Shown here one piece after another: positions 5,568 through 5,695 of a DNA stretch of 64,000 nt. The notes below the pieces were generated by a model that saw nothing but the letters and a program-made list of their open reading frames with translations, was not told the DNA's origin and did no database searches. The stretch is from Haliotis rubra (lineage: Eukaryota). The translations under genes and the position numbers were made by a program. The first letter of the stretch is position 1. Every line of letters starts with the position of its first letter. The stretch spans positions 930,684 to 994,683 of the forward strand of contig NW_025766975.1 of NCBI RefSeq assembly GCF_003918875.1. The letters are read 5' to 3'.

Positions 5568-5695
5568 TTGCTGACGTCACATGCGATACGGGTACAGACG
5601 CCCCCTCGTCACATCCCGGGGGGTGGTGGAGGTCACTCTGTCCTACAAGTCCAAACAATTCTGCAAAGGAGCACCGGGCAGATTTGTGTATACAG
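5568..5695 (+). CDS. coe: COE/EBF transcription factor exon (C-terminal part of IPT/TIG domain); encodes [18 protein letters not shown] then, after a 1-nt frame slip in the G6 run at 5618-5623, [24 protein letters not shown]
   Basis: Acceptor tgtttag|TTG at 5566-5567 and donor ACAG|gtaagc at 5696-5697. Translation matches the recalled EBF1/Collier motif [38 protein letters not shown] almost exactly, but needs a -1 frame switch inside GGGGGG (5618-5623). Exon ends in phase 1, compatible with the next exon. Confidence 0.85.

Follow-up and report, generated by a model that had tools for sequence, protein, structure and literature searches.

A frameshift at a G run in the IPT/TIG exon of the Haliotis rubra COE gene and its probable origin as a consensus error

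The window, i.e., the whole stretch of 64,000 nucleotides of Haliotis rubra DNA analyzed here, carries a COE exon whose conserved protein sequence is divided between two reading frames at a run of six Gs. Does the sixth G belong to the gene of the animal, or was it written into the assembled sequence? This was examined through the exon itself, its orthologues in Haliotis and other animals, and the properties of the assembly.

COE exons in the window and the site of the frame change

The last exons of the COE (Collier/Olf/EBF) gene of abalone, a single-copy and very probably functional gene, lie in the window as follows.

5568–5695, + strand: COE exon covering the C-terminal third of IPT/TIG, 128 nt as assembled, canonically 127 nt
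5618–5623, + strand: G6 homopolymer with a surplus base, G5 or AG4 in the orthologues
10036–10124, + strand: COE exon encoding the end of IPT/TIG and helix 1 of the HLH, with AG/GT edges
11021–11213, + strand: COE exon encoding helix 2, with two donors (11198 and 11213)
12029–12175, + strand: COE exon encoding the Ser/Gly-rich C-terminal region, with AG/GT edges
13853–13897, + strand: COE exon (LDHFLRDEAGRLGA), with AG/GT edges
14147–14355, + strand: optional COE exon (…LLH), matching isoforms X1/X2 of H. cracherodii and H. rufescens
14668–14774, + strand: last coding exon with two C-termini, matching the annotated P0245 (…SPAK) and P0242 (…LLHE)

The affected exon is bounded by a tttag/TTG acceptor at 5568 (AG, phase 0) and an ACAG/gtaagc donor at 5695 (G/GTAAGC, phase 1). 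Direct reading gives GGGGGG at 5618–5623, preceded by CAC ATC CC and followed by TGG TGG AGG. Translation of 5568–5623 yielded the 18 residues that the initial annotation had reported for the first half of the exon. The 24 conserved residues that it had reported for the second half were also recovered, though they start at 5623 instead of 5622. Each half matched COE with a tblastn E-value of ~1e-10 to 1e-12, a similarity far above what chance would give. That the two halves make up one conserved EBF/Collier IPT-domain exon, as had been claimed, is borne out by the corrected reading, whose identity to the COE proteins of four Haliotis species is 100%. The frame change of the conserved residues falls at the G run itself, and no alternative AG or GT offering a splice-based rescue was found at ±1 around the exon. 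With the six Gs of the assembly, the IPT/TIG domain is broken after ...RHIPG, and the frame from 5568, when continued past the run, stays open until a stop at 5697–5699, just past the donor. The real exon would be 127 nt long and would read ...CAC ATC CCG GGG GTG GTG GAG..., leaving the IPT/TIG strand uninterrupted.

The exons downstream had been described as intact with good splice sites, and this holds: all seven other exon boundaries are canonical AG/GT, and the downstream phases fit the second frame. With five Gs, exons 5568–5695 and 10036–10124 align to residues 274–366 of 3MLP_A (E = 1.7e-60), so that an IPT/TIG domain is present; in the annelid orthologue P0002, the corresponding stretch lies within the Pfam TIG residues 66–148. 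The COE-type HLH is also present, as a match to the full profile (1–44) of Pfam PF16423 COE1_HLH (E = 4.9e-31, 106.7 bits, cut-off 27) that spans exons 10036–10124 and 11021–11213. The exons of the COE DNA-binding domain with its zinc knuckle (PF16422) lie upstream of the window and are encoded in the orthologous loci of the congeners; base 33 of the window aligns ~0.5 kb downstream of the preceding COE exon of H. asinina. Vertebrate EBF1–4 (structures 3MLP, 3N50, 3MUJ, and 3MQI) have IPT/TIG and HLH domains nearly identical to those of abalone COE, and the site of the frameshift maps to about residue 291/292 of the EBF1 chain 3MLP_A. By contrast, the C-terminal tails differ between EBF1–4 and abalone COE, and the helix-2 stretch, one exon in the abalone gene, is matched twice by the vertebrate EBF1 chain.

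The two donors of the helix-2 exon, 11198 (ACCG/GTCAGT) and 11213 (GAAG/GTTGGT), are in phase and 15 nt apart, and their use omits or adds QWEEG; congeners have annotated isoforms of both kinds (X1/X2 of H. cracherodii and H. rufescens). The 3' end of the gene switches frame depending on the optional exon 14147–14355. Inclusion of this exon, whose end is in phase 0, makes the last exon read GAA TGA (…LLHE*); skipping it shifts the last exon into another frame, which gives a 35-residue tail, GMSSIVASPF…IVSPAK*. Both C-terminal variants match annotated isoforms of the congeners (P0242 and P0245). Among the database proteins, the Mytilus galloprovincialis ‘early B-cell factor’ (P0241, 718 aa) contains the C-terminal half of COE twice (residues 130–382 and 504–715), which suggests a fusion or duplication in the gene model instead of a real architecture.

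Comparison with Haliotis congeners and other animals

The window was compared with three annotated COE loci, those of H. asinina, H. cracherodii, and H. rufescens, and is collinear with them from base 33 to about 16.7 kb. The ungapped identity to the window was 92% for H. asinina and 87% for H. cracherodii and H. rufescens, the loci of the latter two being 98.5% identical to each other. This collinearity over 16.7 kb indicates that the window is the orthologous COE locus and not a stray copy. The exon boundaries are identical between the window and the congener loci, and the exon order, phases, and alternative 3' exons of Haliotis COE are all shared; the window alone, however, carries the extra G in the IPT/TIG exon. 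The orthologous exon is 127 nt long in all three congeners. At the G-run site, CCC GGGGG TGG was found in H. cracherodii and H. asinina and CCC AGGGG TGG in H. rufescens, against CCC GGGGGG TGG in the window, in agreement with the earlier statement that five Gs are required for the conserved reading. Among the four Haliotis species, the 708 nt of coding sequence that the window contains differ in length by this extra G only.

Codon differences between the window and the three congeners within these 708 nt amounted to 17, 28, and 27, all synonymous, with 0 nonsynonymous changes, while the introns are 85–91% identical (a divergence of about 8–15%). Such synonymous-only differences beside introns of this identity indicate that both exon halves were read in their conserved frames throughout the divergence of the genus. 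When one G is removed, 235 of the 235 C-terminal residues are identical to the COE proteins of H. rubra (XP_046574865.1), H. rufescens (XP_046372076.1), H. cracherodii (XP_071089799.1), and H. asinina (XP_067657492.1). The 100% C-terminal identity extends to the protein of a RACE-derived cDNA, ADQ39028.1 (HasCOE, Jackson et al. 2010). Full-length COE proteins were found with a 524-aa bait composed of a conserved N-terminus and the exons of the window, for which the best full-length match was Haliotis COE; the N-terminus of the bait, EBF1 sequence plus P0002, served as bait only and has no evidential value. In the intron that follows the affected exon, the stretch 5971–7181 aligns at 82% identity to H. 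asinina and, for H. cracherodii, lies within a block of 78.6%, against ~91% for the flanking intron; this stretch may be a lineage-specific insertion or repeat.

Outside the genus, the exon was 127 nt (42 codons + 1) on four unrelated invertebrate genomic contigs, with the acceptor and donor positions unchanged; between the window and these four exons, 22–28 codons differ synonymously and one codon (I/L or R/K) nonsynonymously. Dozens of ORFs on genomic contigs of other animals read the exon together with its flanking introns in a single frame. The comparison with orthologous loci that had been proposed as a check of the frameshift was hence carried out, and every orthologue examined keeps a single frame at the G run. 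The single-frame orthologous exons of 127 nt imply that the exon in the window has exactly one surplus base, and that purifying selection has acted on each half in its own frame.

These comparisons bear on whether the window could hold a pseudogenized or redundant extra copy of COE, for which a frameshift in a conserved exon would be the classic first lesion. Such a copy is highly unlikely. The introns are kept at orthologous positions, the 16.7 kb are collinear with the single annotated COE locus of each of three congeners, and the splice sites and alternative exons are intact. Neither accumulated lesions nor a dN/dS drifting towards 1 was found: there is a single lesion, dN is zero against the 17–28 synonymous codon changes, and the protein is 100% identical to those of four species. 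Furthermore, each congener COE protein maps to one place only. COE is reported to be a single-copy gene in non-vertebrates and to be expressed in developing abalone larvae (PMC2990012).

The G6 run was also considered as a recoding site, at which the ribosome would shift by +1 (tRNA-Gly moving from GGG to the overlapping GGG) or the polymerase would drop one G by transcriptional slippage. A run of identical bases does permit re-pairing after a +1 slip, and the first frame is open up to the stop just past the exon donor. Against this, the congeners and all other animals examined encode these residues in one frame, so a frame change conserved in orthologues was found in none of them. The next 0-frame codon is an ordinary GGU, neither a stop nor a rare codon; known slippage tracts are far longer than G6; and nothing else in the gene differs, with no known stimulatory context. 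The codon, run-length, and context objections rest on what is established for +1 sites of the antizyme and Ty types. Recoding is accordingly the least probable of the explanations, at the very edge of plausibility, and an old pseudogene or a recoding site can both be regarded as effectively excluded.

Repeats in the remainder of the window

Downstream of COE, the window contains six tandem arrays, located as follows.

17253–18413: 128 bp x 9
19971–20710: 42 bp x 17
38168–39425: 22 bp x 58
40671–43924: 21 bp x about 150, with a strong pyrimidine skew on the + strand
59966–61785: 35 bp x 52
62028–62289: (AGT)n

Many small indels were observed between the copies of these arrays. In the 22-bp minisatellite, the small indels between copies are readable either as noise or as natural slippage, and they were left out of the evidence. 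A dispersed repeat of ~226 bp occurs in eight copies on both strands of the window (22445–22601, 29825–30052, 36072–36303, 36347–36572, 40092–40270, 47173–47399, 56543–56721, and 63776–64000). The copies are 74–80% identical to one in an upstream COE intron of H. cracherodii (L005, 8853–9081), and the repeat is probably a SINE or MITE family common to Haliotis. The segment 47806–47877 (+ strand) matched an Rfam tRNA weakly (33.8 bits against a gathering score of 29), was not called by ARAGORN, and may represent a decayed tRNA gene or a repeat derived from a tRNA. Lastly, an ORF at 28926–29324 (− strand) encodes a transposase-like N-terminal helix-turn-helix (…RPRSGRPRITTPVEDRYLRH) with a Pfam HTH_29 score of 20.3 bits, below the cut-off, and is likely a remnant of the Tc1/mariner type.

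Origin and meaning of the sixth G

The sixth G at 5618–5623 is very probably a homopolymer-length consensus error that is missing from the gene of the animal itself; a five-G run would have been lengthened to six, most likely when the long reads were assembled or polished. The observations are the surplus base, three congeners that lack it, and a gene otherwise free of signs of decay; from these we infer that the base is an artifact. A lone homopolymer base at the orthologous position of a gene with a dN of 0 and no other lesion fits a consensus error and not an old pseudogene. Residual homopolymer indels are the commonest consensus error of long-read assemblies, and the known cases likewise consist of a change of ±1 in a run of at least five identical bases within an otherwise perfectly conserved coding exon. 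Nanopore errors, however, shorten homopolymers more often than they lengthen them, and the lengthened run of the window is hence an over-call in the less typical direction.

The H. rubra assembly was generated from Nanopore reads with wtdbg, then run twice through Racon and once through Pilon, and merged with a DBG2OLC hybrid assembly; its GC content is 40.5% (PMC6774278), and that of the window is 39.8%. The window spans tandem arrays of 1.2–3.2 kb without gaps, which suggests a long-read assembly. The H. rubra COE model XP_046574865.1 is named ‘LOW QUALITY PROTEIN’ in RefSeq, a Gnomon designation meaning that protein alignment supports the correction of a genomic indel or frameshift (bioRxiv 10.1101/2021.07.16.452324). 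The tie between this flag and the G6 base is circumstantial. Together with the dN of 0 and the absence of another lesion, the flag strongly favors, short of proof, the homopolymer-length assembly error that the initial annotation had put forward as the simplest explanation.

Small indels in the remainder of the gene region were also evaluated. When the four species were aligned over the 16.7 kb under strict filtering, G6 alone was a 1-bp indel specific to the window. When 1-bp indels were polarized between the window and H. asinina lineages by using two outgroups, no excess was detected in the window lineage (19 lineage-specific events versus 22 on the H. asinina lineage over 16.7 kb), in what is a low-power test; the consensus hence gives no independent hint of being prone to indels. 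Independent sequences of the same species were sought as well: an exact look-up of the 106-aa ORF of the G6 reading gave no match, a protein search with the G5 exon and its intron read-through returned other species only, exact DNA patterns with G5 or G6 gave none in metagenome and prokaryote-genome collections, and no locus was obtained by looking up the H. rubra protein.

The remaining explanation is that the sixth G is a real germline variant: the animal, being heterozygous, inbred, or captive bred, would have carried a loss-of-function COE allele of very young age, and the haplotype assembled would happen to be the one with it. The extra base is, after all, present in the sequence, slippage at a G5 run is a natural route of mutation, and the window lacks the surplus of further small indels expected of a sloppy consensus. 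Heterozygosity is high in abalone genomes, and the H. rubra animals sequenced were inbred or captive bred (PMC6774278). On the other side, no nonsynonymous change and no second lesion occur in the 708 nt, so a null allele would have to be extremely recent. COE is a single-copy gene, and its C-terminal 235 residues are invariant in four species, which implies that null alleles are strongly selected against. Frameshift alleles are very rare in genes under such constraint, and a homopolymer consensus error would be more probable a priori by orders of magnitude. A null allele is therefore unlikely, albeit less so than a pseudogene or a recoding site.

If G6 were real, the mRNA computed from it would encode HIPG, then 73 wrong residues, and then the stop TAA at 11077–11079, several exon junctions before its end, and would be a predicted target of nonsense-mediated decay. 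The protein would lose the last β-strands of IPT/TIG and the entire HLH dimerization domain. Such an allele would possibly segregate as a lethal or deleterious variant in abalone broodstock or an inbred line, and abalone breeding and developmental genetics would have a modest interest in it as a natural COE null allele of a mollusc.

Under the preferred reading, namely a consensus error, the gene is a known and annotated family member, Haliotis COE, and the anomaly almost certainly belongs to a well-known class of errors and is not a biological feature. The finding is hence relevant to quality control alone. The exon should be annotated with five Gs, which is evidently what RefSeq did in H. 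rubra, and the assembly should be polished again. A frameshift accepted as it stands would cause the one COE/Collier gene of this abalone, a conserved regulator of neuronal identity, to be wrongly dropped from the gene set, and would introduce a false ‘gene loss’ or ‘pseudogene’ into comparative analyses.
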